Positions 4,504 to 32,000 of a stretch of 32,000 nt of DNA are shown here, piece after piece. The stretch is from an uncultured Actinomycetota bacterium. GTDB taxonomy: Bacteria; Actinomycetota; Actinomycetes; Actinomycetales; Dermatophilaceae. The translations under genes were made by a program, and so were the position numbers. Position 1 is the stretch's first letter. Each line of letters starts with the position of its first letter. The stretch lies in NCBI GenBank assembly GCA_963730365.1, contig CAVSRM010000011.1:179110-211109 (forward strand). Direction: 5' to 3'. The notes under the pieces were generated by a model. It was given only the letters and a program-made list of their open reading frames with translations, did no database searches and was not told the origin of the DNA.

Positions 4504-7500
4504 ATGTCGAAGCCCCAGGCCAGGACCCGCGAGGACCTCCTCGCGAAGATCGCGGCAGTGTGCGCCGACGCCGGTCTGGATGGGGGTGCGTCCGACTTCG
4601 TCCATCGCTACTTCCGGCACGTCCCGCTCGACGAGCTGACCACGCGAGACCCCGACACGTATGCCGGTGCCGCCAGCAGCCACCTCGAGCTGGCCCGAAA
4701 CCGGCCGCCCGGAGTGTCGAACGTGCGGGTCTACAACCCCAGCACCGAGGTCGACGGCTGGACCAATCCCCGGACGATCATCCAGGTCGTCACCGACGAC
4801 ATGCCCTTCCTCGTCGACTCGGTCACCGGCTGCCTGGTCAGTGCCGGCATCGACATCCACCTCATCGTCCATCCGCAGCTCGTCGTGAGCCGCGACGCCA
4901 TGGGCGTCCTCCAGCGGGTCGAGTCCCGCGAGGTCACGGGTCGAACCCGGGGCGGCAGCCTCGACAACCTCGCCGAGTCGTGGATGACCCTGTCCATCGA
5001 CCGGGAGAGCGACGAAGAGCGCCGCGCCGCCCTGGAGGCGCAGGTCAGGAACGTGCTGGAGGACGTGCGGCAGTCCGTCGAGGACTGGCCCAAGATGCGG
5101 AGCAAGTGCCTCGTCCTCGCGGCCGAGCTCGAGGGCTCACCCCCCGTGGGGATCGACGAGGCGGAGGTCGCCTCCTCGACCCGGTTCCTGCGGTGGATGG
5201 CCGACAACCACTTCACCTTCCTCGGGTACCGCGACTACGTCCTCCGCGAGCTCGACGGCGGCGAGGTCATCGCACCCGTGGGCGGGTCGGGCCTGGGACT
5301 GCTCCGCTCGGACCCGCCGGCCGGTGCCGACCCGGACCGCCTCACCCGCGCGGCCTCCGAGAAGGCGCACGAGGCGAACATCCTGGTGCTCACCAAGGCC
5401 AACTCGAAGTCCACCGTCCACCGGGTCACCCACCTGGACTATGTCGGGGTCAAGGCCTACGACGAGGAGGGAGTCGTCGTCGGGGAGCGTCGCTTCCTCG
5501 GCCTCTACGCCTCGACCGCCTACACCGAGTCCGTCCTCAACGTGCCGCTGGTCGCAGAGAAGGTGCACGCCGTCCTGGAACGCGCGGGGGTCGCGTCCGA
5601 CAGCCACACCGGCAAGGACCTCCTCGAGGTGCTCGAGAGCTACCCGCGTGACGAGCTGTTCCAGGCGTCTCTCGACCAGCTCTACGACACGGCGATGGCG
5701 GTGACCCAACTCCAGGAACGACGCCGCACGAAGCTGTTCATCCGCGAGGACGACTTCGGGCGGTTCGCGTCCTGCCTCGTCTTCATCCCGCGTGACCGCT
5801 ACAACACCTCGGTCCGGCTGAGGATGGCCGAGATCCTCAAGGACACCTTCGGCGGCGAGGACGTCGAGTTCTCGGCGAGGGTGAGCGAGTCGGCCCTTGC
5901 CAGAGTGCAGTTCGTCGTGAGGGTCGCCCGCCACAAGCGGATCCGGAGCCTGGACCGCACCGAGGTCGATGCTCTCGAGCAGCGCCTCGTGGAAGTGAGC
6001 CGCACCTGGTCGGACCGGCTGGGCGACGTGCTGCGCAGTGCCTACGGCGAGGAGGCCGGCGACGGCCTGCTCGACCGGTTCGGCCGGGCGTTCCCGACGG
6101 CATACGAGGAGACGTTCACGGTCAACCAGGGGCTCGCCGACCTGCACCACCTCGACCGGCTCGGCGACGAGCGCGGCACCAGCGTTGCCCTGTACCGTCC
6201 CGCCGGCGCGCCCGACGACATCCGTCGGTTCAAGCTCTTCCGCGTCGACCCGCTCTCGCTCACCGACATCCTGCCGATCTTCAGCGACATGGGCGTCGAG
6301 GTGGTCGACGAGCGGCCGTTCGAGGTCAAGCGCTCCGACGGCCTGCCCCTGCACGTCTACGACTTCGGGCTGCGAGTCCCCGACGGCTCCATCTGGGATG
6401 CCGTCAGCCACGACGAGCTCCGCGACCTGTTCGAGGGTGCCGTCTCGGCGGTGTGGGACGGGAGAGCGGAGTCCGACGGTTTCAACAAGCTCGTGCTCGC
6501 GGCCCACCTGGCCTGGCGCCGCGTCGTGGTCCTGCGGACGGTGGCCAAGTACCTCCGCCAGACCCGGGCCACCTACTCGCAGACCTATCTCGAGGATGCC
6601 CTCGTGACGCACCCGGAGATCGCCCGCGACCTCGTCGAGCTGTGGGAGACGCGCTTCGACCCCGAGCGCTTCGCCGGCGAGGCGGGCGAGGAGCGCGACG
6701 AGGCGGAGGAGGCGGTCGCCGAGCGCATCATCGACGCGCTCGACGAGGTCTCCTCACTCGACCACGACCGCATCGTGCGGGCCTTCGTCGGCGTGATCCG
6801 CGCGGGGCTGCGCACCAACTTCTACCAGTCGGGTGACGGCGACGCCGAGCACAAGACATATGTCTCGCTCAAGCTCAACCCGAAGGCCGTCCCCGACCTG
6901 CCTGCCCCCCGCCCGCAGTTCGAGATCTGGGTCTACAGCCCCCGGGTCGAAGGGGTGCACCTGCGGTTCGGCCCCGTCGCCCGCGGCGGGCTCCGCTGGT
7001 CGGACCGTCGTGAGGACTTCCGCACGGAGGTGCTCGGCCTGGTCAAGGCCCAGATGGTCAAGAACGCCGTCATCGTGCCCACGGGGTCCAAGGGTGGGTT
7101 CTATGCCAAGCAGCTGCCCGACCCCGCGGTCGACCGCGATGCGTGGCTGGAGGAGGGCAAGACGGCATACCGGATGTTCATCTCCGCCCTGCTCGACATC
7201 ACCGACAACCGGGTGACCGGAGAGATCCACCCACCGGAGCGGGTGGTGCGCCACGACCGAGACGACCCGTACCTCGTCGTCGCGGCCGACAAGGGGACGG
7301 CATCGTTCTCCGACATCGCCAACGGCGTCGCACAGTCCTACAGCTTCTGGCTCGACGACGCGTTCGCCTCGGGTGGGTCGGCCGGATACGACCACAAGGC
7401 GATGGGCATCACCGCGCGTGGCGCGTGGGAGTCCGTCAAGCGGCACTTCCGCGAGATGGGGGTCGACACCCAGACCGAGGACTTCACCGTGGTGGGTGTC

Positions 7501-9402
7501 GGGGACATGAGCGGAGACGTGTTCGGCAATGGCATGCTCCTCTCCGAACACATCCGACTGGTTGCTGCCTTCGACCACCGGCACGTGTTCATCGACCCGG
7601 ATCCGGTTGCGGCAGAGTCGTTCGCCGAGCGCAAGCGCCTGTTCGAGATGCCTCGTTCCTCGTGGGCTGACTACGACACCAGCCTGATCTCGAAGGGAGG
7701 AGGGGTCTTTCCGCGCAGCCTGAAGTCGATCGACATCACCCCGCAGATGGCCGCTGCCCTCGGCATCCCCGAGGGGACCAAGCGGATGACCCCGTCGGAG
7801 CTGATCCACGCCATCCTGCTCTCGCCCGCTGACCTGTTGTGGAACGGCGGCATCGGCACCTACGTCAAGGCGAGCACGGAGGACCACCTCTCCATCGGCG
7901 ACCGCGCCAACGACTCCATCCGCGTCGACGGCAAGGAGCTGCGCGTGAAGGTCGTGGGGGAGGGAGGCAACCTCGGTCTCTCCCAGGCCGGCCGGATTGA
8001 GGCGGCGTTCAGCGGCGTGCGCGTCAACACCGACGCCATCGACAACTCCGCAGGTGTCGACACCTCCGACCACGAGGTCAACATCAAGATCCTGCTCGGC
8101 GAGGTGGTGCGCAGTGGCGACCTCGACACCGAGCAGCGCAACGAGCTCCTTGCGTCGATGACCGACGACGTCGCCGACCACGTGCTGCGCGACAACTACG
8201 AGCAGAACGTCCTGCTCGGAAACGCGCGCGCCCAGGAGCACTCGATGGCCAGCGTGCACGAGCGGCTCATGCACTGGCTGGAGGACCGCGGCGACCTCGA
8301 CCGTGGCCTGGAGTTCCTGCCCAGTGACGCCGAGCTCGAGAAGCGCGCTCACGAGGGCCTGGGCCTGAAGAGCCCCGAGTTCTCGGTGCTCGTCGCCTAC
8401 GCGAAGCTGGCCCTGAAGGAGGACATCCTCGCCAGCGACATCCCCGACGACCCCTACTTCGAGGCCACCCTCGGGGAGTACTTCCCGCCGCCCATCCGGG
8501 AGCAGTATGCCGACGAGCTCGCCGAGCATCCGCTCCGCCGGGAGATCGTCACGAACTCGATCGTCAACTCGATGGTCAACCGCGGTGGCATCACCTTCGC
8601 GTTCCGTGCTCAGGAGGAGTCGGGCGCCAAGGCGGAGCAGGTCACGCGGGCTTTCGTCGTCTGCCGCGAGGTCTTCAACCTGGCCGAGTACGTGCGCGAG
8701 GTCGAGCAGCTCGACAACGTCGTGCCGACCTCTGCCCAGACCGCGCTGTACCTGGAGTTCCGCCGGCTCCTCGACCGGTCCATCCGCTGGTTCCTCACCT
8801 CGCGGCCGGCCACCCTCGACATCGGTGCCGAGGTCGACCGGTTCGCAGGCGTCGTGCGCGAGCTGGCGCCGCGGGTGCCGGAGCTCCTCCGCGGCGACGA
8901 GGAGGAGCGCCTGGCCCAGCGCGCCGAGGAGCTCGTCAACGTCGGGGTCCCCGAGGAGTTCGCGCTACGGGCGGCTGGGTTGCTCGACCAGTACTCGCTG
9001 CTCGACATCATCGACATCGCGAGCGACACCGGCCGTGAGCCGACCGACGTGGCGCCGCTCTACTACCACGTGTCCGAGCGCTTCGGCATCGACGCCATGC
9101 TCACGAAGGTCACCCGGCTCCCGCGGGACGACCGGTGGGACGCTTTGGCGCGCGGAGCCCTGCGCGACGACCTGTATGCCGTGCTCGAGTCGCTCACCCG
9201 GTCGGTGATCGAGGCGTCCGGCGACGTCGGTGACGACCCGGACGCGATGTGGCGCGCCTGGGAGGAGGCGAACGCCGAGTCGATGGAGCGGTCGAAGACG
9301 GCACTCTCCGCGATCCGGCGCCTCGAGCACCCCAACATCGCGGCGCTGTCGGTGGCGCTGCGCACGCTGCGCTCGGTGATCCGCGTCGGCGCCTCCTCCT
9401 GA
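4504..9402 (+). CDS. gdh: NAD-specific glutamate dehydrogenase, large (about 180 kDa) Bac_GDH type, 1632 aa
   Basis: The size and sequence blocks are characteristic of this family. Examples: ...RFLRWMADNHFTFLGYRDY..., GLRWSDRREDFRTEVLGLVKAQMVKNAVIVPTGSKGGF, VVAADKGTASFSDIAN, VGVGDMSGDVFGNGMLLS, VVGEGGNLGLSQAGRIE. It is an ortholog class of M. tuberculosis Rv2476c. Confidence 0.95.
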   Translation: MSKPQARTREDLLAKIAAVCADAGLDGGASDFVHRYFRHVPLDELTTRDPDTYAGAASSHLELARNRPPGVSNVRVYNPSTEVDGWTNPRTIIQVVTDDMPFLVDSVTGCLVSAGIDIHLIVHPQLVVSRDAMGVLQRVESREVTGRTRGGSLDNLAESWMTLSIDRESDEERRAALEAQVRNVLEDVRQSVEDWPKMRSKCLVLAAELEGSPPVGIDEAEVASSTRFLRWMADNHFTFLGYRDYVLRELDGGEVIAPVGGSGLGLLRSDPPAGADPDRLTRAASEKAHEANILVLTKANSKSTVHRVTHLDYVGVKAYDEEGVVVGERRFLGLYASTAYTESVLNVPLVAEKVHAVLERAGVASDSHTGKDLLEVLESYPRDELFQASLDQLYDTAMAVTQLQERRRTKLFIREDDFGRFASCLVFIPRDRYNTSVRLRMAEILKDTFGGEDVEFSARVSESALARVQFVVRVARHKRIRSLDRTEVDALEQRLVEVSRTWSDRLGDVLRSAYGEEAGDGLLDRFGRAFPTAYEETFTVNQGLADLHHLDRLGDERGTSVALYRPAGAPDDIRRFKLFRVDPLSLTDILPIFSDMGVEVVDERPFEVKRSDGLPLHVYDFGLRVPDGSIWDAVSHDELRDLFEGAVSAVWDGRAESDGFNKLVLAAHLAWRRVVVLRTVAKYLRQTRATYSQTYLEDALVTHPEIARDLVELWETRFDPERFAGEAGEERDEAEEAVAERIIDALDEVSSLDHDRIVRAFVGVIRAGLRTNFYQSGDGDAEHKTYVSLKLNPKAVPDLPAPRPQFEIWVYSPRVEGVHLRFGPVARGGLRWSDRREDFRTEVLGLVKAQMVKNAVIVPTGSKGGFYAKQLPDPAVDRDAWLEEGKTAYRMFISALLDITDNRVTGEIHPPERVVRHDRDDPYLVVAADKGTASFSDIANGVAQSYSFWLDDAFASGGSAGYDHKAMGITARGAWESVKRHFREMGVDTQTEDFTVVGVGDMSGDVFGNGMLLSEHIRLVAAFDHRHVFIDPDPVAAESFAERKRLFEMPRSSWADYDTSLISKGGGVFPRSLKSIDITPQMAAALGIPEGTKRMTPSELIHAILLSPADLLWNGGIGTYVKASTEDHLSIGDRANDSIRVDGKELRVKVVGEGGNLGLSQAGRIEAAFSGVRVNTDAIDNSAGVDTSDHEVNIKILLGEVVRSGDLDTEQRNELLASMTDDVADHVLRDNYEQNVLLGNARAQEHSMASVHERLMHWLEDRGDLDRGLEFLPSDAELEKRAHEGLGLKSPEFSVLVAYAKLALKEDILASDIPDDPYFEATLGEYFPPPIREQYADELAEHPLRREIVTNSIVNSMVNRGGITFAFRAQEESGAKAEQVTRAFVVCREVFNLAEYVREVEQLDNVVPTSAQTALYLEFRRLLDRSIRWFLTSRPATLDIGAEVDRFAGVVRELAPRVPELLRGDEEERLAQRAEELVNVGVPEEFALRAAGLLDQYSLLDIIDIASDTGREPTDVAPLYYHVSERFGIDAMLTKVTRLPRDDRWDALARGALRDDLYAVLESLTRSVIEASGDVGDDPDAMWRAWEEANAESMERSKTALSAIRRLEHPNIAALSVALRTLRSVIRVGASS

Positions 9403-11026: not shown

Positions 11027-11275
11027 TCAGCCCGCGCGGCGGGCCCGTGCGTTGCGCCGCTTGAGCGCGCGGCGCTCGTCCTCGGACATCCCGCCCCACA
11101 CACCGGCATCCTGACCCGACTCGATCGCCCACTTCAGGCAGGTGTCGGTGACCTCGCACCGACGGCACACAGCCTTGGCCTCCTCGATCTGAGCGATCGC
11201 CGGGCCGGTGTTCCCGATGGGGAAGAACAGCTCGGGGTCCTCGTCGAGGCAGGCAGCGCGGTCGCGCCAGTCCAT
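11027..11275 (-). CDS. whiB1: WhiB-family [4Fe-4S] transcription factor, WhiB1-like, 82 aa
   Basis: MDWRDRAACLDEDPELFFP...CRRCEVTDTCLKWAIESGQDAGVWGGMSEDERRALKRRNARARRAG. It has four Cys, the GVWGG turn and a basic tail, and is nearly colinear with M. tuberculosis WhiB1. AAGGAG lies 8 nt upstream of the ATG. Confidence 0.93.
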   Translation of the reverse strand: MDWRDRAACLDEDPELFFPIGNTGPAIAQIEEAKAVCRRCEVTDTCLKWAIESGQDAGVWGGMSEDERRALKRRNARARRAG

Positions 11276-11569: not shown

Positions 11570-11965
11570 GTGCCTGTCCCGTCCTCACGCGGCGCCCGCC
11601 GCATCGCCGCCGCCCTCACGGCGGTGCAGTCCCTCGCGCTCGCCGGCTTCGCAGCGTTCTACCTCTATGAGCTGGTCATCGGCGAGGGCAGTGACACCGG
11701 TCGCGTCGTCATGTCGGCCCTGTTGATCCTGGGCGCGGCCATCGCCCTCGCCGTGCTCGCCCGGGGCTGGCTCGGTGCCGGAGAGTGGCCGCGCACCCCG
11801 ACGGTCGTGTGGAACCTGCTCCTGCTCCCTGTCGGTTGGACCCTGGTCCAGTCCGGACTGCTCGCCGTGGGCTGGGCCGTGCTGGTCGTTGCCGTCGTGG
11901 CGACCCTCGTCGCCTTCTCCTCCCGACCCGACCACCCCCCGACCGAGGGCGACACCGCCGGCTGA
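11570..11965 (+). CDS. Small integral membrane protein (about 4 TM), 131 aa
   Basis: About 90% G/C at third positions in this frame (13 of 131 codons end in A/T). There are four clear hydrophobic helices (AAALTAVQSLALAGFAAFYLY, VVMSALLILGAAIALAVLA, VVWNLLLLPVGWTLV, LLAVGWAVLVVAVVATLVAF). The family is unknown. Confidence 0.65.
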   Translation: MPVPSSRGARRIAAALTAVQSLALAGFAAFYLYELVIGEGSDTGRVVMSALLILGAAIALAVLARGWLGAGEWPRTPTVVWNLLLLPVGWTLVQSGLLAVGWAVLVVAVVATLVAFSSRPDHPPTEGDTAG

Positions 11966-14900
11966 TGCCCCATCGGCGAGCACCTGCACCTCGGTGACGG
12001 ATCCGTGCGCGATGAACAGGCCTCGACCCGGAACTGCCGGGATGCCGTGGAGGCTTGCTGCCCCCAGGGCGTCCCCGTCGCCGGGCTGGGGGCGGAGCAG
12101 CAGGCCGGCGCGCTCGCGACACACCTCGACGTCCACCCCCCGGAACCGTGTGGCCACCGCGCGTGGGGTCGTGGCGACGACGACGAGGCCGTCGTCACGG
12201 TCGGCGAGCTCCGCGACCTCCCGCACCACCGACTCCCCGGCTGACCCGTCCAACAGGTCGGCATCGTCGACGAGGAGGACGAGGTCGGGGCAGCGCCGCC
12301 GCAGGTCGACCAGCGGACCGGGAGCCGAGTGCTCCGCCACCACGCACCCCGGCACGCCCTGCCACTCGGCGGGGCTGGACGACAGGACCGCCACGGTGCG
12401 GCTGCTGGCGAGCGCGGACCCAGCCAGAGCCTGGAGGGCCGTCGTGCGGCCCGAGCCACGAGGCCCCACCAGGGCCAGCCGCCGTCCGATGATGTCCGGG
12501 ACGATCGAGAATGGCTGGGGCTCGTCGCCGGCGACGCCCAGCAGCAGCCCACGTCGATCGGTGGGCCGCAGGCAAGGCAGGGCGAGCACGGCCGAGCGCC
12601 GCACGTGGGTGGGAAGTGGGCGAAGCCGCAGCGGGGGCCGGGCGGTCGGAGCAGTGGCCGATGCAGCGGCCACGGAGGCCACGTCGCCCGGACCAGGTCG
12701 CGCGAACTGCAGGTGCAGACGGTCGGCGACGCGCACGGCCCGGCCGGGTGGTGGGTCCGCGATCAGGTCGCGGGCGGGCACGCCGGCGAGGGCAGCGGTC
12801 AGCGCGTCGATCGCGCCGAGGAGGAACAGGTCGGCGCCCAGCCCGGCCCATCGCGGCTGCAGCAGCGAGCGCCCACCGGTGACCACGCCCCTCACCCCGA
12901 CGGAGGCTCCGTCGCGCAGCAGCCGGACCAGGTCGTCGGCCAACTGGTCGTGGTCTGCGTCGGGTTGCGACTCGACGAGCTGGTCCCACCCGTCGACCAC
13001 CATGAGGATGGCGGGCTGTGGCGGCTGGGTCTGGTGGTCCCGGGCGGCGCCCAGGCGGTGGTCCACCTCGGCGCGGAGTCGCCGCACGAGGTGGCGGATC
13101 GTCGTGTGGTCCCCGACCCTCAGTCGGGTGCCGAGGTGGTGCAGCCCGTCGAGGTCCCGCAGCGCTCCGCCGGTGCCGATGACGTGCAGGTGGAGATCCG
13201 TCGCCGGCTCGGCCGTTGCCGACGCCAGGGCCACCCCGAGCGCAGCGGTCGTCCTCCCCGACCCGGGCGGCCCGGAGAGCAGCCACGTGCCTTGCGGTGG
13301 TCCGAGCGCGGAGATGAGCTGGCGGTCGGGCTGGTCGAGCAGCGCCACCCCCTGCCTGCACCCACCAGGTTCCCGGACGTTCGAGAAGCCGACCACGGTG
13401 GGAAGCGGAGCGAGCCACGGGGCCCTCGGCGGGTGTCCGCCGCGACCCGAGTGGGCCGCCACGATGGCGTCGACGATCGAGCCAGCAGGGTCGAGCACGT
13501 CCGGTGCCGCGTGGACGTCCACGGCGTCGAGCGAGAAGGCGTGGTCGAGACTGCCTGGACCCACCGACCTGTGGGATCCGGTCGTCCGTCTGCTGCTCCG
13601 CCTCCGGTCGGTGGGGTCACTCGGGCGCACCTGCAGCCATGGCCCGGTCGCCGCGGCCGAGTGCGACAGGGCTGCGGCCTGGAAGGTCGCCACGTGGCCG
13701 TCGCCTCCTCGCGCCATGGCTCGGCCCGGGACGTCGGAGGGGAGCTCGGCGGCCCCGACGTCGTCGAGCACGTCCATCGAGTCGGCGCGGTCACGCATCC
13801 GGAACGCGATCCGGAGGTTGACGTTGGCCTGCACCTCCGCGGTCACCGCGCCGGCGGGTCGCTGCGTGGCCAGCACGAGGTGCACCCCCAGCGACCGGCC
13901 GAGCGCTGCGAGGCGGACGAGCCCCGACACGAAGTGGGGCAGCTCGTCGACCAGGGCCCGGAGCTCGTCGATGACGACGACCAGCCGGGGAACGGGCTCG
14001 CTGTCGGCCGCTCGACGGAGCTGGAACTCCGCGAGGTCCCGCGCACCCGCATCCGCGAAGAGCCTCTCGCGCCGCCGCAGCTCCGCGCCGAGCGACCTCA
14101 GCGCGCGGTCGACCAGCTGCTCGTCGAGGTCGGTGACGACCCCGACGACGTGAGGGAGCCTCGCGCAGGAGCCGAAGGCGGAGCCACCCTTGAAGTCGAC
14201 GAGGACGAAGGTGAGGTCCTCCGGCGGACAGCGCACGGACAGCGACGTGACGAGGGTGCGCAGGAACTCGGACTTGCCCGATCCCGTGGTGCCCCCGACC
14301 AGCACGTGGGGGCCGTCGCGGACGAGGTCGATGGCCAGGACTCCGCCGGGCGACAGGCCCACCGGGGCCACGGGCGGCCGGGGTGTGGCACGGTCCGACC
14401 GCTGCACCGGGCCCCACGATGCGGCCACCGTCTCGGCCGTGACCTCGGGCACCGCCAGCACCTCCGCCAGGCTCACGGACCTCGGGAGCGCCCTGGTGGA
14501 GCCCGGCTCGGCCGCGGGCCGAAGTGGTGCCAGGGCGCGTGCCAGGCGATCCACCCACCACGCGCCGACCAGGTCCGCGGAGAGGGACACCTCGCCGCCG
14601 TCGGACTCCAACCGCCACCGTCCCGGACGCTGGGTGAGGACGGCGCCACACCCTCCGGCCAAGGCCGCACCGGTGGTCGCGGCGACGATGACCAGCGCAC
14701 CGGCAACCGGTCGCCAAGCCCACGGTGCGCCCTCGAGGGAGCCGGGGTCCGGGGCAACGACCACAAAGGTCACCGGCGCCGCGGCGTGGTCCGTGCCGGC
14801 GGCGTCAACGGCATCCGAGGTGTCCCACCAGTGCGGGAGGAGCCGCACCCAGTTCCATGAGGGGTCCGACGTCGCGACGCCGATCCGAAGAAGGGACGGG

Positions 14901-16150
14901 GGCACGTCCACCGCGAGCTGTCCGATGAGCCAGCTGATGACGCGGTCGGTGGTGCCACGGTCGCCGACGACGCCCAGGCGCCGCGCCCTCAGGAGGTCAA
15001 CCGTGACCGGCACGAGGCGAGCCGTCGGACGGGTGCTGGTCGGCCCCTCGACCCAGGTGACCTCGGCCGGCAGGTCACCCAGCCCCAGCCGCAGTCGCTG
15101 CGGGCCCGGGTGCTGCCACAGGCCCGGGTGCCGGTGCTCAGCGGTCTGGAGGACGCGGTGGGGGTCGGGCCTGCTGTCCCGACGTCGCGCGCACTCGAGG
15201 GTGAGGTGGGCGTCGAGGCGAGTGCGGGCCTCAGCCGTCGCCACGCGGTGCGCCGCCCGGGCCTCGCGGTGCTCGCGTCCGGCGCCCAACCGGTCAGCCA
15301 GCGCACTGCCGAGCATGACGGTAGGCCCGAGCAGCGCGAACGCCAGCATCTGGGGACCGAGGAGGACGGCCAGCAGCCCGGCCACCGGGATCGGGACCAG
15401 GGCCCCCACCCACGGGACCCGGGTGCGTCTGCGGTCACCGGGATCGACCGGCGCGGTGACGACCGGGGAGGGGTCCACCGGCCGGGGCAGGTGGCTGGGC
15501 CGGACGGTCAGCCGACCGTCCCCGGTGTTGGTCACGGGCAACCCCGCGCCCGGGCGACGGCGAAGGGCAAGGGTCGAGGCGCCGACGACGATCGTGGACG
15601 AGGTGTCGACACTGGTCGGCCCCTCGGTGCGCCGGCCGTCGACCACGACACCGTTGGTCGATGCTCCGTCGTCCACGGTGACGCCGGACGGGGTCACCGC
15701 GAAGGTCAGGTGGACGCGGCTCATGGCGTCGTCCGCGACCCGCAGACCCACGCCGGGCGACCTCCCGACGGCCAGGCCCGGCGGCGCGAGCAGGGCGGAG
15801 CGGCCGGAGTCCGGACCGCCGACGACCGCGACGTCGAGAGCGCCGGCACGAGGCGACGGCGGGCCGCCCCCGGCATCCGGTGGGGATGGGACGCCGGGGC
15901 CACCGCCGCTGGTCGACTCCCGCCCCCCGAGCACGGCGACGGAGGCTCCGTGCACCAGTGGCGGAACCCCGACGCGTGCGTCGGCCGGAACCGGTTGGCC
16001 GCGCGACCACAACGACGGAACGGGTTCGGCGAGGTGCTCGGCGAGGGCGTCGCAGAGGTGCGTCGCCGACCGTGTGCCGCTCCACGACACGACGAGGTCC
16101 ACTGCTCGCGAACGGCGTCGCGGCAGGTGAACGGTCAGGACCATCTCCAC
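11585..16150 (-). CDS. FHA-domain FtsK/SpoIIIE-family ATPase, EssC/EccC-like, about 1521 aa
   Basis: Domain order: small N-terminal beta-grasp-like segment, FHA, 2 TM, one degenerate P-loop domain, three P-loop domains. N-terminus VDLVVSWSGTRSATHLCDALAE. FHA: LAVGRSPGVGLRVADDAMSRVHLTF...TNGVVVDGRR. TM pair: VPWVGALVPIPVAGLLAVLLGPQMLAFALLGPTVMLG. Degenerate P-loop LGVVGDRGTTDRV, then GGTTGSGKSEFL (Walker B LVVVIDELRAL, ATQRP), GPPGSGRTTAAL and GPRGSGRTTALQ. The start is either GTG 16150 (TACCGT -10-like, 6 nt upstream) or ATG 16144. The last about 127 aa are antisense to the gene at 11570-11965. Confidence 0.85.
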   Translation of the reverse strand: MEMVLTVHLPRRRSRAVDLVVSWSGTRSATHLCDALAEHLAEPVPSLWSRGQPVPADARVGVPPLVHGASVAVLGGRESTSGGGPGVPSPPDAGGGPPSPRAGALDVAVVGGPDSGRSALLAPPGLAVGRSPGVGLRVADDAMSRVHLTFAVTPSGVTVDDGASTNGVVVDGRRTEGPTSVDTSSTIVVGASTLALRRRPGAGLPVTNTGDGRLTVRPSHLPRPVDPSPVVTAPVDPGDRRRTRVPWVGALVPIPVAGLLAVLLGPQMLAFALLGPTVMLGSALADRLGAGREHREARAAHRVATAEARTRLDAHLTLECARRRDSRPDPHRVLQTAEHRHPGLWQHPGPQRLRLGLGDLPAEVTWVEGPTSTRPTARLVPVTVDLLRARRLGVVGDRGTTDRVISWLIGQLAVDVPPSLLRIGVATSDPSWNWVRLLPHWWDTSDAVDAAGTDHAAAPVTFVVVAPDPGSLEGAPWAWRPVAGALVIVAATTGAALAGGCGAVLTQRPGRWRLESDGGEVSLSADLVGAWWVDRLARALAPLRPAAEPGSTRALPRSVSLAEVLAVPEVTAETVAASWGPVQRSDRATPRPPVAPVGLSPGGVLAIDLVRDGPHVLVGGTTGSGKSEFLRTLVTSLSVRCPPEDLTFVLVDFKGGSAFGSCARLPHVVGVVTDLDEQLVDRALRSLGAELRRRERLFADAGARDLAEFQLRRAADSEPVPRLVVVIDELRALVDELPHFVSGLVRLAALGRSLGVHLVLATQRPAGAVTAEVQANVNLRIAFRMRDRADSMDVLDDVGAAELPSDVPGRAMARGGDGHVATFQAAALSHSAAATGPWLQVRPSDPTDRRRSSRRTTGSHRSVGPGSLDHAFSLDAVDVHAAPDVLDPAGSIVDAIVAAHSGRGGHPPRAPWLAPLPTVVGFSNVREPGGCRQGVALLDQPDRQLISALGPPQGTWLLSGPPGSGRTTAALGVALASATAEPATDLHLHVIGTGGALRDLDGLHHLGTRLRVGDHTTIRHLVRRLRAEVDHRLGAARDHQTQPPQPAILMVVDGWDQLVESQPDADHDQLADDLVRLLRDGASVGVRGVVTGGRSLLQPRWAGLGADLFLLGAIDALTAALAGVPARDLIADPPPGRAVRVADRLHLQFARPGPGDVASVAAASATAPTARPPLRLRPLPTHVRRSAVLALPCLRPTDRRGLLLGVAGDEPQPFSIVPDIIGRRLALVGPRGSGRTTALQALAGSALASSRTVAVLSSSPAEWQGVPGCVVAEHSAPGPLVDLRRRCPDLVLLVDDADLLDGSAGESVVREVAELADRDDGLVVVATTPRAVATRFRGVDVEVCRERAGLLLRPQPGDGDALGAASLHGIPAVPGRGLFIAHGSVTEVQVLADGASAGGVALGRGVVGSGGEGDEGRHDGNDQHGPAHGEQSGLDQGPTDREQEQVPHDRRGARPLSGTEPAPGEHGEGDGRAQDQQGRHDDATGVTALADDQLIEVERCEAGEREGLHRREGGGDAAGAA

Positions 16151-16156
16151 GTCGCC

Positions 16157-16162
16157 ACGGTA
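16157..16162 (-). promoter_or_regulatory. TACCGT (TANNNT) -10-like hexamer 6 nt upstream of GTG 16150; possible leaderless start of the FtsK-like gene
   Basis: The reverse complement reads ccaaTACCGTggcgacGTGgagATG. GGAG abuts the ATG with no spacer, so a Shine-Dalgarno-driven start at the ATG is unlikely. Confidence 0.3.
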
Positions 16163-16375
16163 TTGGCCACCGCCGACCTCGCGATGATGTTGTCCACAGC
16201 CCACGCACCCGGTCGTCGAACCACGCGGGTGCCGTTGTGTGGGGGTCCGTCCGGTGGACGCCGGACGTCAAGGCGCCCAGGTCGCGGCATGCCCAATGTC
16301 ACAGTCCCACATCGGTCCACCGGGTCTACCGTGGAGACAGAGGTGTATGTCAATCCCCACCGCCCGGGAGGCGTG

Positions 16376-28070: not shown

Positions 28071-28337
28071 ATGGCCGTGGACGCGGTCCGGACGCTCGAG
28101 ACCGAGGTGAGGGAGCTCATCCGGCGCTCCGGACTCGACCCTGCCCACGATGAGGCTCAGGTGCGTCGCCTCGTGCGCGACGCGGTGAGTGACTACGACG
28201 AACGGTCAGTGCACGGGGGGATGCCGGTTCTCGCCGACATCGAGGCAGCCTCCCGGGCGGTCTGGGACACCGTGGCCGGCTTCGGGGCACTGCAGCGGTA
28301 CTTCGACGATCCGAGTGTCGAGGAGATCTGGGTCTAG
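28071..28337 (+). pseudogene. tadA: 5' fragment (88 codons) of a CpaF/TadA-family Tad pilus secretion ATPase
   Basis: The ATG follows GGAAGGGG. The peptide ...VRRLVRDAVSDYDERSVHGGMPVLADIEAASRAVWDTVAGFGALQRYFDDPSVEEIW matches the conserved N-terminal region of CpaF/TadA ATPases (normally about 400-450 aa). It stops at TAG right after EEIWV. No ATPase core follows in any frame. Confidence 0.75.
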
Positions 28338-28509
28338 CGTCGCCTGACCCTGGGGTCAACGGCCCCCGCCACGGCTCACCGACGCGTGTGAGCCTAGCGA
28401 GGTCGAACAGGAATGGCCCCGGGCGATGGGTGGGTCACTTCGCCCACTGTGGGGCAGCGTCACAGCGCCCAAGCCTCCGGGCTTGCCGGAACCTGTCAAC
28501 CTCGTTGGG

Positions 28510-29535
28510 TCAGTTCTTCGTTCGGGTTGTTGAGTCGGTTGGGTCTGGCTTGTTGATCCAAGTGGTGCCGGGCAGGTTCGGGGGTTCGGGGTGCTTGCGG
28601 ACGAACCTCTCGGGGTTCGTCGCGTAGGCGACGCTGAGGGTCTTGGCGCGGGCCTCTTGGACGGTGCTGGCATGGCCGTGGTGGACGTCGAACGGGGTGT
28701 GCATCCCGATCCCGGAGTGGCGGTGGTCCTGGTTGTACCAGCGGTAGAAGATGCTGCAGAACGCTCGGGCGTCCTCGAGGGATCCGAAGGTCTCGGGGAA
28801 GTCGGGCCGGTACTTCAGGGTCTTGAACTGCGACTCCGAGAACGGGTTGTCGTTGGAGCAGTGCGGACGCGAGTGAGACTTGGTGACGCCGAGGTCGGCG
28901 AGCAGAAACGCGACCGGTTTCGAGGCCATCGAGGAACCGCGGTCGGCGTGGATGGTCAGCTGGTGCCGCTCGACTTTCTGCTTGGCGATCGTGTCGCCCA
29001 GCAGCCGCTCGGCCAGCTCCTTGGACTCCTTCGTGGCGACCATCCAGCCCACGGTGTAGCGGGAGTAGATGTCGATGATCGAGTACAGGTAGTAGTAGGT
29101 CCACTTTGCCGGGCCGGTGAGCTTGGTGATGTCCCAGGACCAGCACTGGTTCGGGCCGTGCGCGACGAGCTCGGGCTTGACCCGTGGCGGGTGCACTGCC
29201 TGGCGGCGCCGTTCCCGCACGCCGCCGTGGGTCCGGCGCAGGAGTCGGTACATCGTGGACTCCGAGCACAGGTAGCGGCCTTCGTCGAGCAGGATCGCGT
29301 ACACCTCGCCCGGGGAGAGGTCGACGAACCGGGGCTCGTGGAGCACCGCGAGGACCTCGGTCCGCTCGGTAGCCGTCAGCGCCCGCGGCTGGGGTTGGGG
29401 CTCACGTGCCGCCTGGGCCGGGGGCGGGCTCTTGCGGTGCCACCGGTAGTGCGTCGCGCGGGGTCGCCCGACCGCGGCGCAGGCAGCCGCCACACCCACC
29501 AGGGGCTCGAGTTCGGTGATCGCCCCGTCGGTCAT
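28510..29535 (-). CDS. IS3-family transposase OrfB (HTH plus DDE integrase core), 341 aa
   Basis: rve-type DDE triad context: [39 protein letters not shown]-terminal HTH: [20 protein letters not shown]. Confidence 0.9.
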
Positions 29536-29966
29536 CGCTCGCTGTCGTTCCTGCTGCTGTCGGTCGCGAGGGTGTCCAACAGAGCCGAGAGTTTTCCCTG
29601 CACCTCGATCACGCGGCGTGCCGTGTCCAGCTCCGCGGCGAGGCGCTGGTTCTCCTTGCGCAGCCGGGCTGCCTCACGTTGGGCCGGGTCGGCCGGCGCC
29701 GCCCCGCCCGGCTTCCCGAGCGCCGCGAGGGCGCCCTTGTCGCGCTGCTCGCGCCAGGCGCTGATCAGCGAGGTGTACAGGCCCTCGCGGCGTAGCAGCG
29801 CTCCCTTGCCGGCCCGGTCGGCTGCCTCATACTCGGCGAGCACGTCACGCTTGTACGCCGCGGTGTAGGTCCGTCGGCGTGCCCGCTCGGGGACCTCGGG
29901 ATCAGGAACATCACTCACCACTCCAGATTGCCTCGCCTCGACCGGCTGCGGCACTGTCGTCGTCAT
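29532..29966 (-). CDS. IS3-family transposase OrfA (HTH plus leucine-zipper-like helix), 144 aa
   Basis: ATG at 29966 lies 8 nt after GAAGGAG. Blocks: [16 protein letters not shown] and a C-terminal coiled coil, [30 protein letters not shown]. Its stop overlaps the orfB ATG (ATGA). Confidence 0.85.
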
Positions 29967-30055
29967 CAGGGGAACTCCTTCCCCGCCCTCCAAGGCACTG
30001 ATCAGGACGGTCCTGGTGCCTCACACAAGGCTGACAGAGAGGGGAACCCCGGACG

Positions 30056-31426
30056 TTAGCGGGACAGGTACTTTTTGATGCAGTGGAGTGCGCCCAGGGC
30101 GATAGCCAGGTGGCTGAAGTCGGCGAGTTGGTGGACGGTGAAGCCGAGCCCTTCCCAGATTTCGCGGTGTTTGGCATCCACAGTAGCCAGAGGGGCGCTA
30201 CTTCCGTGTCCGTAAGTCGGCAGCCAAACATCACGACTGTCGCCGTCAATCTGCACAAGACAATTGTTCGACGTGGCGTGGTACCACCGCAGCGTTCCCT
30301 CAACCGCGACGACGTTACCCTCGATCTCGACCCGACGAGCACGGTCGTCCACCAGCGCTGGGACGAGCGGCAATGGCGTCCGGATCACCTGGAAGCCCAG
30401 ACTTTCGAGCTGGGCAGCGATGTCGTCGTACTCGGACTGCATGTTGAACGCCCGCGTCGAGTCGCCCAAGAGCTCGTCTGCTAGGCCAGGGTCGCCGACC
30501 AGGACGCGGTACGGGCCGTCAGGCGTTGCCCGACCGGCGAGGGATACGAACATGTCAATGTGGAAGATCGGCTGGCGTAGCCCTTCCCCGCCCAGCTCGT
30601 TTAGGTACATCTTGCCCCCATACTCCGATACGAACTTGTCGGGCGGCCGGGACAGGGGCTGGGACTCGAGGAAGTGGAATTCCTTGCTGGGGTCAAGGGC
30701 ATCGCGGAATAGCTGCCGGATGAACCGCTCCTGAGTATCGCGGTCGCCGATAGGGAAGTCCCGTATCGCATCCTCCTCAATCGCAGTCATGATCGACTCG
30801 TCCAAGTCGTCACGCCCAATCAGAACGAACTCGTCACCGATCAGCATGTTCCCGCCTTGAAAGGAGAGGGGGAGCTGTGTGGACGCCAGATCTGGGGACG
30901 CCTCCGCCACTAGGTCCGCCACAAGGCCGTCACCGTACCGCGGGAAACTGTATGGCTCGACCAGATAGGTCTCGACCACACCATCGCTGCTGGCGTCCGT
31001 CACCACGGTGCACGCATCCTCAGCCCAAATGCTGAAGGCGAGGTGGTGGGGGGTCTGGACCAATTCGATCTCGCGGCTGTCTCCCGCCTGTTTGATGATC
31101 TCCTGCAGCTCCTCGAGACCGTTGGGGTGCACCGCGAACGTGACACGGGTTGACGCCGGTAGTTGCTGCAGGAGGTCGACGAAGGTGTGGCGGTGAGGGG
31201 GTACGGTGCCGTCTTCATACGCGGGGTATCCCGCATACCACAGCATGATGTGCCTGATCGGGCCGTGAGCCAACGACACCAGAGACGGTGACTGCAACCC
31301 CGGCGTTGGCAGTGGCTTGACCTCGAAACCCTCGACGGTGTCGAAGCGGTCGTCGCGCTTTAGGCAACGCAGCGGGGTACTCAGCGGCAGCGGCGCAGTC
31401 TTCTTCAGGACGACTCTCTCAGGCAT
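30056..31426 (-). CDS. Divergent pentein-fold guanidino-group-modifying enzyme (agmatine deiminase / Porphyromonas-type PAD-like), 456 aa
   Basis: Family-ordered motifs: MLWYAGYP, SIWAEDACTVV (compare DxWxRDxGP), SFQGGNMLIG (compare EGGN), PIFHIDMFVSL (compare GHxD), WYHATSNNCLV, and the C-terminal catalytic-Cys motif LGALHCIKKY (compare GGxHCxT). ATG 31426 lies 6 nt after AGGAGA. It has a TAA stop and many A/T-ending codons, so G+C is visibly lower than in the core genome. Confidence 0.7.
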   Translation of the reverse strand: MPERVVLKKTAPLPLSTPLRCLKRDDRFDTVEGFEVKPLPTPGLQSPSLVSLAHGPIRHIMLWYAGYPAYEDGTVPPHRHTFVDLLQQLPASTRVTFAVHPNGLEELQEIIKQAGDSREIELVQTPHHLAFSIWAEDACTVVTDASSDGVVETYLVEPYSFPRYGDGLVADLVAEASPDLASTQLPLSFQGGNMLIGDEFVLIGRDDLDESIMTAIEEDAIRDFPIGDRDTQERFIRQLFRDALDPSKEFHFLESQPLSRPPDKFVSEYGGKMYLNELGGEGLRQPIFHIDMFVSLAGRATPDGPYRVLVGDPGLADELLGDSTRAFNMQSEYDDIAAQLESLGFQVIRTPLPLVPALVDDRARRVEIEGNVVAVEGTLRWYHATSNNCLVQIDGDSRDVWLPTYGHGSSAPLATVDAKHREIWEGLGFTVHQLADFSHLAIALGALHCIKKYLSR

Positions 31427-31637
31427 TCCGGATCTCCTCATCGGACGACAACGTCAGCCCGAAGACCTGTCGGGCAACTCGAAAGTCCCACACCCACCAA
31501 TACTCTGACAAGGCCCAAATGCGCAGCGCCGTAACGATGGTTTCATCGGTGAGCATGACGCTGTCATGACGCGACAGTTCTCGATGCACGTCGGTCTGCC
31601 CCGGCGAAAGGAGGCGCAGCAAACCACCGACTGTCAT
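31419..31637 (-). CDS. Small hypothetical protein (72 aa), Trp-rich, translationally coupled to the pentein-like gene
   Basis: Its stop overlaps the downstream start (aATGccTGA, 8-nt overlap). Codon usage matches the downstream gene. The peptide contains ...TALRIWALSEYWWVWDFRVARQVF... I recognise no family. Confidence 0.4.
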   Translation of the reverse strand: MTVGGLLRLLSPGQTDVHRELSRHDSVMLTDETIVTALRIWALSEYWWVWDFRVARQVFGLTLSSDEEIRNA

Positions 31638-31772
31638 TGTCGCGAGAAATGTCGCTGACGTTCCGGGCGAGACCTCCCCTGCGCCTACCTGGTGGGGCTC
31701 GAGTCCTGCCCCCGGGCGAGCGGAGGCGAGGAGCAGGGCCCGGACGAGCTCGGTGTCGGTAGCTCGGTCAGG

Positions 31773-32000
31773 TCAATCCGCAGTCCGTCGGGCGACCTCG
31801 ACCAATCGTGTGATCCCGTCGGCAGCGAGCCCGACCGGCGGCAGCTCGCCGTAGGGCCATCGGGGCATCCGAAGCTGGTCGGTGTTGATGCCGAAGTCCA
31901 CAAGCCCGAGCCCCACCCTCGGAATTCCTTCGCAAGCCCCGGTGTACTCAAGCGCCGCGCTGCGGACGGTGAGGAGCAGTGCGGTCAGCACGGCGATCTG
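31773..32000 (-). CDS. 3' end of a CDS running off the window (function unknown)
   Basis: The frame is open from the window edge to TGA at 31773-31775 (...LEYTGACEGIPRVGLGLVDFGINTDQLRMPRWPYGELPPVGLAADGITRLVEVARRTAD*). Third positions are mostly G/C. It is in the same frame as the 72-aa ORF downstream. Confidence 0.35.
   Translation of the reverse strand, partial: QIAVLTALLLTVRSAALEYTGACEGIPRVGLGLVDFGINTDQLRMPRWPYGELPPVGLAADGITRLVEVARRTAD

Follow-up and report, generated by a model that had tools for sequence, protein, structure and literature searches.

A Diverged Pentein-Fold Enzyme Gene Adjoining an Interrupted Subtilase Gene in an Uncultured Actinomycetota Bacterium

Introduction

Enzymes of the agmatine deiminase (AgDI)/peptidyl-arginine deiminase (PAD) branch of the pentein superfamily use an established covalent thiouronium chemistry, and one of them, the Porphyromonas PAD (PPAD), works together with proteases, the Arg-gingipains. 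To our knowledge, protein citrullination in bacteria has been described for only a handful of systems, namely Porphyromonas PPAD and the citrulassin PAD of Streptomyces. The latter is a true member of the PF03068 family, and its gene does not cluster with those of its substrates (bioRxiv 10.1101/2020.07.16.207027). The subject of this report is a gene for a 456-aa pentein-fold (PAD/agmatine-deiminase-like) protein, referred to below simply as the pentein, and the gene of a divergent subtilase (Peptidase_S8, S8 hereafter) directly upstream of it, found in a 32,000-nt stretch of DNA from an uncultured Actinomycetota bacterium (contig CAVSRM010000011.1; the whole stretch is called the window). 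New here are a family, so far unclassified, within a well-known superfamily and its recurrent coupling to proteases.

An enzyme gene tightly coupled to the gene of an S8 or trypsin-like protease is likewise the arrangement of the protease-effector modules (PMC12642450) and of the NucA-peptidase conflict system (PMC7159879), which are, as is the pentein family, enriched in actinomycetes and filamentous cyanobacteria. The words “deiminase” and “pentein” are absent from both the conflict-system survey (PMC7159879) and the protease-effector study (PMC12642450). Weighing everything presented below, we give about an even chance to the reading that the window encodes a protease-coupled guanidino hydrolase, likely a peptidyl-arginine deiminase, which resides on a lower-GC island and whose copy in the window is probably decaying.

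Results and Discussion

A pentein-fold enzyme outside the curated families

The pentein gene lies on the minus strand at 30056..31426, ends in a TAA stop codon (30056-30058) and is contained in an open frame spanning 30056-31441(-), within which the ATG at 31426 is supported as the start of a 456-aa product because a GAGGAG Shine-Dalgarno sequence (31434..31439, minus strand, as read from the sequence) is found 7 nt before it, inside the coding tail of the subtilase gene, and the equivalent Met is where homologs begin. Protein P0001 has the identical sequence. The initial annotation, made from the letters alone, had recognized five pentein landmarks in canonical order, all of which are present in this ORF (MLWYAGYP, SIWAEDAC, FQGGNML, FHIDMF and GALHC), and the fold it had proposed is borne out by an AF2 model (pLDDT 91.6, pTM 0.88) built from an alignment of 56 homologs at 41-59% identity. 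A Foldseek search of the PDB with this model returned 49 matches at E<=1e-3 with a TM per target of 0.6-0.74, ranks 1-49 all being penteins: agmatine deiminases 1xkn, 2ewo, 2jer, 1vkp and 6nib (E 8e-14 to 1e-11), Porphyromonas PAD (E about 1e-11), human PAD1-4 (E 4e-10 to 1e-6) and DDAH (E 1.6e-6). Model and matches alike support the five-fold pseudo-symmetric beta-beta-alpha-beta propeller by which the superfamily is defined.

Invariant throughout the 56 homologs are W134-A-E136-D137, F189, G191-G192-N193, Q285-P-(I)-F288-H289-I290-D291-M292, G445 and H448-C449, so that the Asp / His-x-Asp / Cys set of the AgDI/PAD branch is complete and in canonical order; the candidate catalytic residues are D137, H289, D291 and C449, encoded on the minus strand by codons 31016-31018, 30560-30562, 30554-30556 and 30080-30082, respectively. 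The call of a pentein fold is regarded as correct because the AF2/Foldseek matches, the invariant residues and the sub-threshold Pfam matches described below agree with one another, and the protein appears, judging by this model and these columns, to be an active enzyme of the AgDI/PAD branch that falls outside both of its curated families (PF04371 and PF03068). Were the chemistry of the branch to apply, the enzyme would hydrolyse a guanidino group by the covalent thiouronium route: D137 and D291 would hold the guanidinium group, the carbon of which Cys449 would attack, with H289 as the general base, ammonia would be released, and the thiouronium intermediate would be hydrolysed to a ureido product.

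The best Foldseek matches belong to the AgDI/Porphyromonas-type PAD family (PF04371; 2jer, 1vkp, 6nib, 4ytb), with which the pentein shares the five-bladed fold and the motif order W..D, (E/Q)GG(N/S), H.D and a C-terminal HC nucleophile, but from which it differs in having WAED for WxRD, GALHC for GGxHC, an N-terminal extension and insertions that make it ~90-130 aa longer. The initial estimate of about 100 extra residues and a ~60-aa N-terminal extension was roughly right, the matched PDB chains being 317-372 aa long as opposed to 456 aa; the first 46 residues have no regular structure in the model (pLDDT 67-80; Arg20 is invariant there). Unlike PPAD, the pentein has neither a signal peptide nor a T9SS domain, and as its N-terminus contains no hydrophobic signal-like stretch, the enzyme of the window probably stays in the cytoplasm.

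Sequence comparison places the protein far from anything curated. Nothing but a chance wecB match was obtained at E<=10 with the pentein as the query against Pfam, NCBIfam, PADLOC and PHROGs, which means that it did not just fall below the PF04371 gathering and NCBIfam agmatine deiminase cut-offs but did not score against these models at all; a phmmer search of PDB sequences with the single protein gave no match, and the 56-sequence profile found only a chance ornithine transcarbamylase (E 1.6) among them. Three of the 56 members match PF04371 (PAD_porph) weakly (best E 0.012), and with more divergent relatives the score rises to 18-22 bits, still short of the cut-off of 25. The fold is equally that of the PF03068 PADs (human PAD1-4, the Streptomyces citrulassin PAD and the cyanobacterial PADs), a family that shows a similar Actinomycetota/Cyanobacteria bias and similarly highly diverse genomic contexts. 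The query itself does not match PF03068 and lacks the PAD_N and PAD_M domains, whereas 14/56 members do so below threshold (E 0.02-0.14, 11-14 bits vs a cut-off of 25), over their last ~35 residues, that is, the Cys segment, where the “DF..(F/Y)....G..HC” of the pentein family weakly aligns to profile positions 348-382 of 395. A designation of “citrulassin-type PAD” was considered and rejected, the citrulassin PAD being a true PF03068 member from which the pentein family is separate.

These comparisons bear on the alternative that the pentein is a metabolic hydrolase of a free guanidino compound (agmatine, arginine or another), next to which proteases would occur incidentally or only in particular clades, an alternative that we consider conceivable but doubtful. 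The agmatine deiminases at the top of the structural matches speak for it, as does the name “agmatine deiminase family protein” given by PGAP to distant relatives, one of which, encoded on a Vibrio plasmid (28% identity, E 5e-34; an S-type pyocin is found nearby), carries SIWAQD, EGGN, QPIFHIDM and GSVHCITK in common with the pentein motifs. The absence of any score against the agmatine deiminase models, the WAED and GALHC variants of the motifs and a weak Pfam similarity that leans towards PAD rather than PAD_porph (14/56 vs 3/56) speak against it, and neighbourhood content, discussed below, has to be added to both sides.

The family is anything but small. A word search collected 402 clusters at 90% identity, all of them unnamed or “hypothetical”, an exhaustive profile search 1315 cluster representatives at E<=1e-3 (313 at E<=1e-30), and, among the GTDB species representatives, 175 stretches encode a relative. 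The carriers are mostly Acidimicrobiia and other Actinomycetota (Lentzea, Kocuria, Blastococcus, Micromonospora), followed by heterocystous cyanobacteria (Scytonema, Calothrix, Tolypothrix) and a few Bacteroidota and Acidobacteriota. There is, in other words, a large unclassified family that stands beside the agmatine-deiminase/PPAD (PF04371) and PAD (PF03068) families, and more than 1300 clusters of proteins common in soil Actinomycetota and filamentous cyanobacteria, which keep the deiminase active-site residues, are missed by every curated model tried and labelled “hypothetical”.

The “small partner gene” is the tail of an interrupted subtilase gene

The initial annotation had paired the pentein with a Trp-rich 72-aa ORF at 31419..31637 (minus strand), the stop codon of which overlaps the pentein start (ATGccTGA, 31419-31426; the TGA is at 31419-31421), and had proposed a two-gene module. 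The junction and the TAA stop of the pentein gene were both read correctly, and a coupled pair does exist, but the partner is a subtilase and not a 72-aa protein. The 72-aa sequence falls in the same 90% cluster as the 435-aa protein P0123 and equals its last 72 residues (364-435); P0123 is encoded on a contig (L083) that matches window positions 28439-32000 at 99.55% identity with only two gaps (blastn) and carries, on one strand, Peptidase_S8 (435 aa), the pentein (456 aa, 8-nt overlap) and the same IS3 element as the window. The 72-aa ORF is not an independent gene, and what the window contains is the 3' part of a divergent Peptidase_S8 gene (31419..32000 and on beyond the window end, minus strand), identified by the blastn alignment to L083 and by the PF00082 match of P0123.

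Relative to L083, the subtilase gene of the window carries an additional base near 31787 and lacks one near 31746, and the 41 nt between the two indels are read out of frame as “VARRTAD*” in place of “VARRLRIDLTELPTPSS”, which creates an in-frame stop at 31773-31775; a V-to-G substitution is seen at 31711. A separately encoded Trp-rich small protein with which the pentein would work is consequently a reading to which next to no credence can be given. Its attractions are real enough, given an ATG-started frame with an overlapping stop and start that was also picked up by the gene calling of the source contig. Nevertheless, the same residues are the C-terminus of a 435-aa S8 on the nearly identical contig, the frame holding them is open upstream right up to the indel-made stop, the Trp-rich tail (LTD..L..AL.IW.A..F.W.WDFR) is kept at the C-terminus of the full-length homologs P0124 and P0125, and tblastn found no homologous small gene at 80 related loci. 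The case also illustrates how a “small partner protein” can arise spuriously from a frameshifted assembly.

The subtilase assignment rests on matches of P0123, P0124 and P0125 to PF00082 (43.9, 35.0 and 26.5 bits, respectively; gathering cut-off 21.8). The AAGN (N161) and GTS (S234) motifs are both invariant among the homologs. The profile of this subtilase (A3) gave no match against the PDB, and a metagenome scan with the S8 profile was equally empty. The protein of ~435 aa has no obvious signal peptide.

A conserved subtilase-pentein cassette

As the 72-aa ORF is the tail of the subtilase, the true module is a subtilase gene followed by a pentein gene, and since the stop of the former overlaps the start of the latter, the two are probably translationally coupled. 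The P0123-type subtilase is rare, with only three homologs among 5.8 billion proteins, and the pentein gene is found directly downstream of it in all four lineages, which is why the cassette is regarded as conserved; adjacency to, and co-evolution with, a protease gene, by which protease-effector modules are recognized, is seen in 4/4 lineages of this type, and three further protease types adjoin penteins in other clades. Identity within the cassette is 45% for the S8 and 55% for the pentein. The two genes overlap by 4 nt in L086 (pentein P0004, 55% identical to that of the window) and are separated by 1 nt in L087 (likewise 55%).

The remaining lineage consists of three metagenome contigs that are 99.8-100% identical (L088-L090) and show the same lesions in three samples: the frame switches between the subtilase body and the Trp-rich tail right after “HQVG”, so that the tail appears in the other frame as a 67-aa ORF, and an inserted low-GC stretch disrupts the pentein after residue 82, leaving its N-terminus as an 82-aa ORF. 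Either a degraded cassette has become fixed in that population or, less likely, the frameshift is programmed. Including the window, the cassette is broken in 2/4 lineages.

Adjoining the pentein in two of these cassette loci and in one further locus is a gene for a protein of ~100 aa with an N-terminal C..W.AW...MPG...L.V.G.C motif (L086 2855-3148; L087 1239-1547 (-); L111 2900-3220), present in three orientations at its three loci. A restricted search found only these three, there was no match against Pfam, and an iterative HMM of the protein was discarded because it drifted into the pentein itself. In L086 this gene follows immediately downstream of the pentein, a slot that in the window and L083 holds the IS3 instead.

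The context, taken as a whole, makes peptidyl-arginine the most likely substrate, presumably as part of a protein or peptide on which the protease acts too. The protease may create or expose the target, as the Arg-gingipains do for Porphyromonas PAD, or else it may process the deiminase itself.

Other proteases and conflict-type neighbours

Coupling to serine proteases recurs outside this cassette. A different S8 (470-473 aa) follows the pentein gene at a distance of 19-42 nt in L007-L010, L016 and L101, and a third S8 type (598 aa) follows it at 54 nt in L140. In L082, a pentein-S8 pair is part of a co-directional cluster with gaps of just 4-49 nt that comprises SIR2_2, nSTAND1-WD40, again SIR2_2 and nSTAND1-WD40, PD40/RTX, the pentein, the S8 and an 85-aa ORF. 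On plasmid pPPM1a of Paenibacillus polymyxa M1 (L172, 6869-10007), 17 nt separate the gene of a 438-aa pentein, annotated as hypothetical, from that of a 601-aa fusion downstream, which combines a trypsin-like N-terminal half (by eye: GHGTGF...NNHV, GSSGS) with a DRGH NucA nuclease as the C-terminal half (PGAP: non-specific endonuclease), the core architecture also of the “NucA-peptidase” conflict system described by Kaur et al. (PMC7159879). The two S8 subfamilies are treated as independent acquisitions, as local iterative HMM searches meant to link them failed to converge and hhalign gave a probability of only 1.7%. L038 was not counted as having an adjoining S8, the latter being two genes away with an opposite-strand gene in between.

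Further neighbours are of a conflict type. Upstream of the S8 on L083 (1944-7190, beyond window position 32000; GC 0.62-0.68) are two ORFs without annotation (100 and 80 aa) and, past them on the other strand, genes for a 567-aa HTH-PNP_UDP_1 and a 941-aa PIN-TPR-GreABC protein, a pair that is predicted to be a conflict system beside the cassette; this outer part of the island would fit a role in conflict or defence. A distant relative (25% identity, E 1e-20) on a plasmid of Aureispira sp. (L174, 5869-7272) is located between a type III-B CRISPR Cmr4-6 module and four TIR genes along with a gene containing a nucleoside 2-deoxyribosyltransferase domain.

One may, then, suspect the pentein of being the latent effector of a protease-effector defence module: a trigger, for example a phage, would lead the protease to cleave the pentein, e.g., removing the ~46-residue N-terminal extension with its invariant Arg20, and the freed enzyme would deiminate host or invader proteins or deplete arginine, resulting in growth arrest. 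Taken jointly, cleavage and its proposed consequence seem unlikely to us. The association with S8 proteases of three lineages and a trypsin-like one parallels the protease-effector modules of PMC12642450, the pentein-S8 pair of the MFD clade shares one tight operon with two SIR2-nSTAND1/WD40 pairs, the PNP/PIN-TPR-GreABC, trypsin-NucA and Cmr/TIR neighbours of other members are of a kindred nature, the actinomycete and filamentous cyanobacterial bias matches that of such systems (PMC7159879), and disruption of the cassette in 2/4 lineages is what would be expected of costly conflict genes. Set against this are the lack of matches to PADLOC models, literature searches on deiminases in defence that returned nothing relevant and hence no link between the two, the many members (most of the family) with neither a protease nor a sensor as a neighbour, and the operon of the window lineage, which contains no sensor gene. 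In comparison with the conflict systems of PMC12642450 and PMC7159879, an operon shared with STAND NTPases and SIR2 is found in one pentein clade only (L082), whereas the cassette of the window has no sensor in its operon and most members have no protease neighbour.

We hold it to be similarly improbable that the family as a whole is an unrecognized effector or accessory class of prokaryotic conflict systems, i.e., an arginine deiminase that, once the adjacent serine protease gating it is triggered, would citrullinate proteins of the host or the invader or else break down a guanidino metabolite. Were it true of a protease-gated effector, however, protein citrullination would be added to the chemistry of bacterial immunity or programmed cell death in actinomycetes and filamentous cyanobacteria. 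The pairs found in STAND/SIR2, NucA or CRISPR/TIR neighbourhoods may be a link to the origins, in bacteria, of immune and apoptosis-like pathways. Even short of that, the repeated independent coupling to serine proteases yields a testable hypothesis of a protease-linked arginine-modifying activity in bacteria.

The small ORFs near several cassettes (80-122 aa) invite yet another thought, that of a pair tailoring a ribosomal peptide, with the subtilase as the leader peptidase and the pentein converting Arg to citrulline, and bacterial PADs are indeed known to citrullinate lasso peptides (bioRxiv 10.1101/2020.07.16.207027). It is a very improbable one, since no conserved cyclase, dehydratase, transporter or recognizable precursor is found beside the cassettes, the small ORFs of different cassette types share no homology, and the citrulassin precedent concerns a PF03068 enzyme encoded apart from its substrate genes. 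The small ORFs that follow the S8 of the downstream type (85 aa, L082 12777-13034; 122 aa, L140 5469-5837) end in motifs like “DPAVVSIEPAYKL”. In this they are reminiscent of subtilase propeptide/I9-inhibitor domains; neither ORF had a significant Pfam match.

A census of 150 immediate neighbours at 81 genome loci bears on the free-metabolite alternative as well. The commonest neighbour families were TerC (8, from Lentzea synteny) and Peptidase_S8 (6), and no putrescine- or agmatine-pathway family, be it N-carbamoylputrescine amidase, arginine decarboxylase, putrescine carbamoyltransferase or carbamate kinase, was present among the top 25 Pfam families of these neighbours or in the annotated loci L081-L085, in which respect the pentein also departs from the PF04371 enzymes. 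An ordinary agmatine deiminase in a putrescine operon is rejected on this neighbour content, and the initial statement that the protein is diverged and outside the described pathways stands, with no Pfam or NCBIfam match to contradict it. A purely metabolic role is further disfavoured by serine proteases adjoining in four independent arrangements, while most members being single genes among ordinary metabolic neighbours is what such a role would predict.

The protease-coupled deiminase that we prefer has to contend with the very same census and with a good deal besides, and the following observations all weigh against it. The immediate neighbours represent as many as 168 Pfam families without any universal partner, and most members of the family stand alone, in neighbourhoods that are unrelated, those of L081 (GH38 mannosidase), L084, L085 and the P0005 contig being quite mundane. 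The cassette penteins fall in one larger clade of the pentein tree that includes protease-less members, and no protease adjoins the pentein in the closest relatives (P0002, P0005, P0016 and P0017), P0002 having a NUDIX gene upstream. Several of the protease-linked loci come from single clades, so independent events are few, about four. For the Asp and His of the protease triad there are only candidates: D9 and H81 are invariant, but a second Asp-like motif is present at D277, the PF00082 match of P0123 is restricted to profile positions 109-255 of 288, and an AF2 model computed from four sequences reached a pLDDT of only 41. Neither the pentein nor the subtilase matches a PADLOC model. Finally, as regards decay, the indels of the subtilase gene could be assembly or consensus errors instead of mutations.

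A lower-GC island and the state of the window copy

The initial annotation had described the pentein block as lower in GC with atypical codons, and this holds: GC is 0.62 as compared with ~0.70-0.75 for most of the window, and GC3 of the pentein is 0.77 as compared with 0.85-0.96 in the other window genes. Its further remark that the block casts almost no long shadow ORFs does not, as shadow ORFs of 133-156 aa overlap the pentein gene.

Next to the gene is an IS3-family insertion sequence (28494..30036, approximate, minus strand) with orfA at 29532-29993, orfB at 28510-29535 and imperfect TGTCA... inverted repeats, which is assigned to IS3 on the rve (76 bits) and rve_3 (56 bits) matches of orfB, a weak HTH_Tnp_1 match of orfA and these ends. 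The pentein had been suspected of being cargo of this element. The adjacency is real, the IS3 end being 19 bp from the pentein stop codon, but the element is a simple one of 1.5 kb, present at the same site in L083, and since it carries no cargo and has merely inserted 19 bp downstream, “IS3 cargo” was rejected.

Compared with L083, the pentein of the window has the changes S52L (31272) and Y207D (30808) and one synonymous one; thus, two of three substitutions are non-synonymous and at conserved sites, Tyr207 being conserved in at least 90% of the 56 homologs. This pattern, along with the indels, fits relaxed selection, and the cassette in the window is probably decaying (a premature stop in the protease, Y207D and the IS3 19 bp downstream); L083 is taken as the intact reference.

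Other features of the window

An 88-aa ORF (28071-28337, plus strand) that ends ~150 bp before the IS3 has no Pfam match; by eye, it resembles the N-terminus of a CpaF/TadA-type secretion ATPase. As the remainder of such a CpaF/TadA-like gene is missing, a deletion or rearrangement may have taken place where the island meets the IS. The rest of the window looks like an ordinary actinobacterial chromosome and includes a NiFe hydrogenase and a FUSC-type exporter, a 1632-aa NAD-glutamate dehydrogenase (4504-9402, plus strand), a WhiB-like 82-aa ORF recognized by eye (11027-11275) and an EccC/type VII-like FHA-FtsK/SpoIIIE multi-ATPase of ~1539 aa (11585-16204, minus strand).

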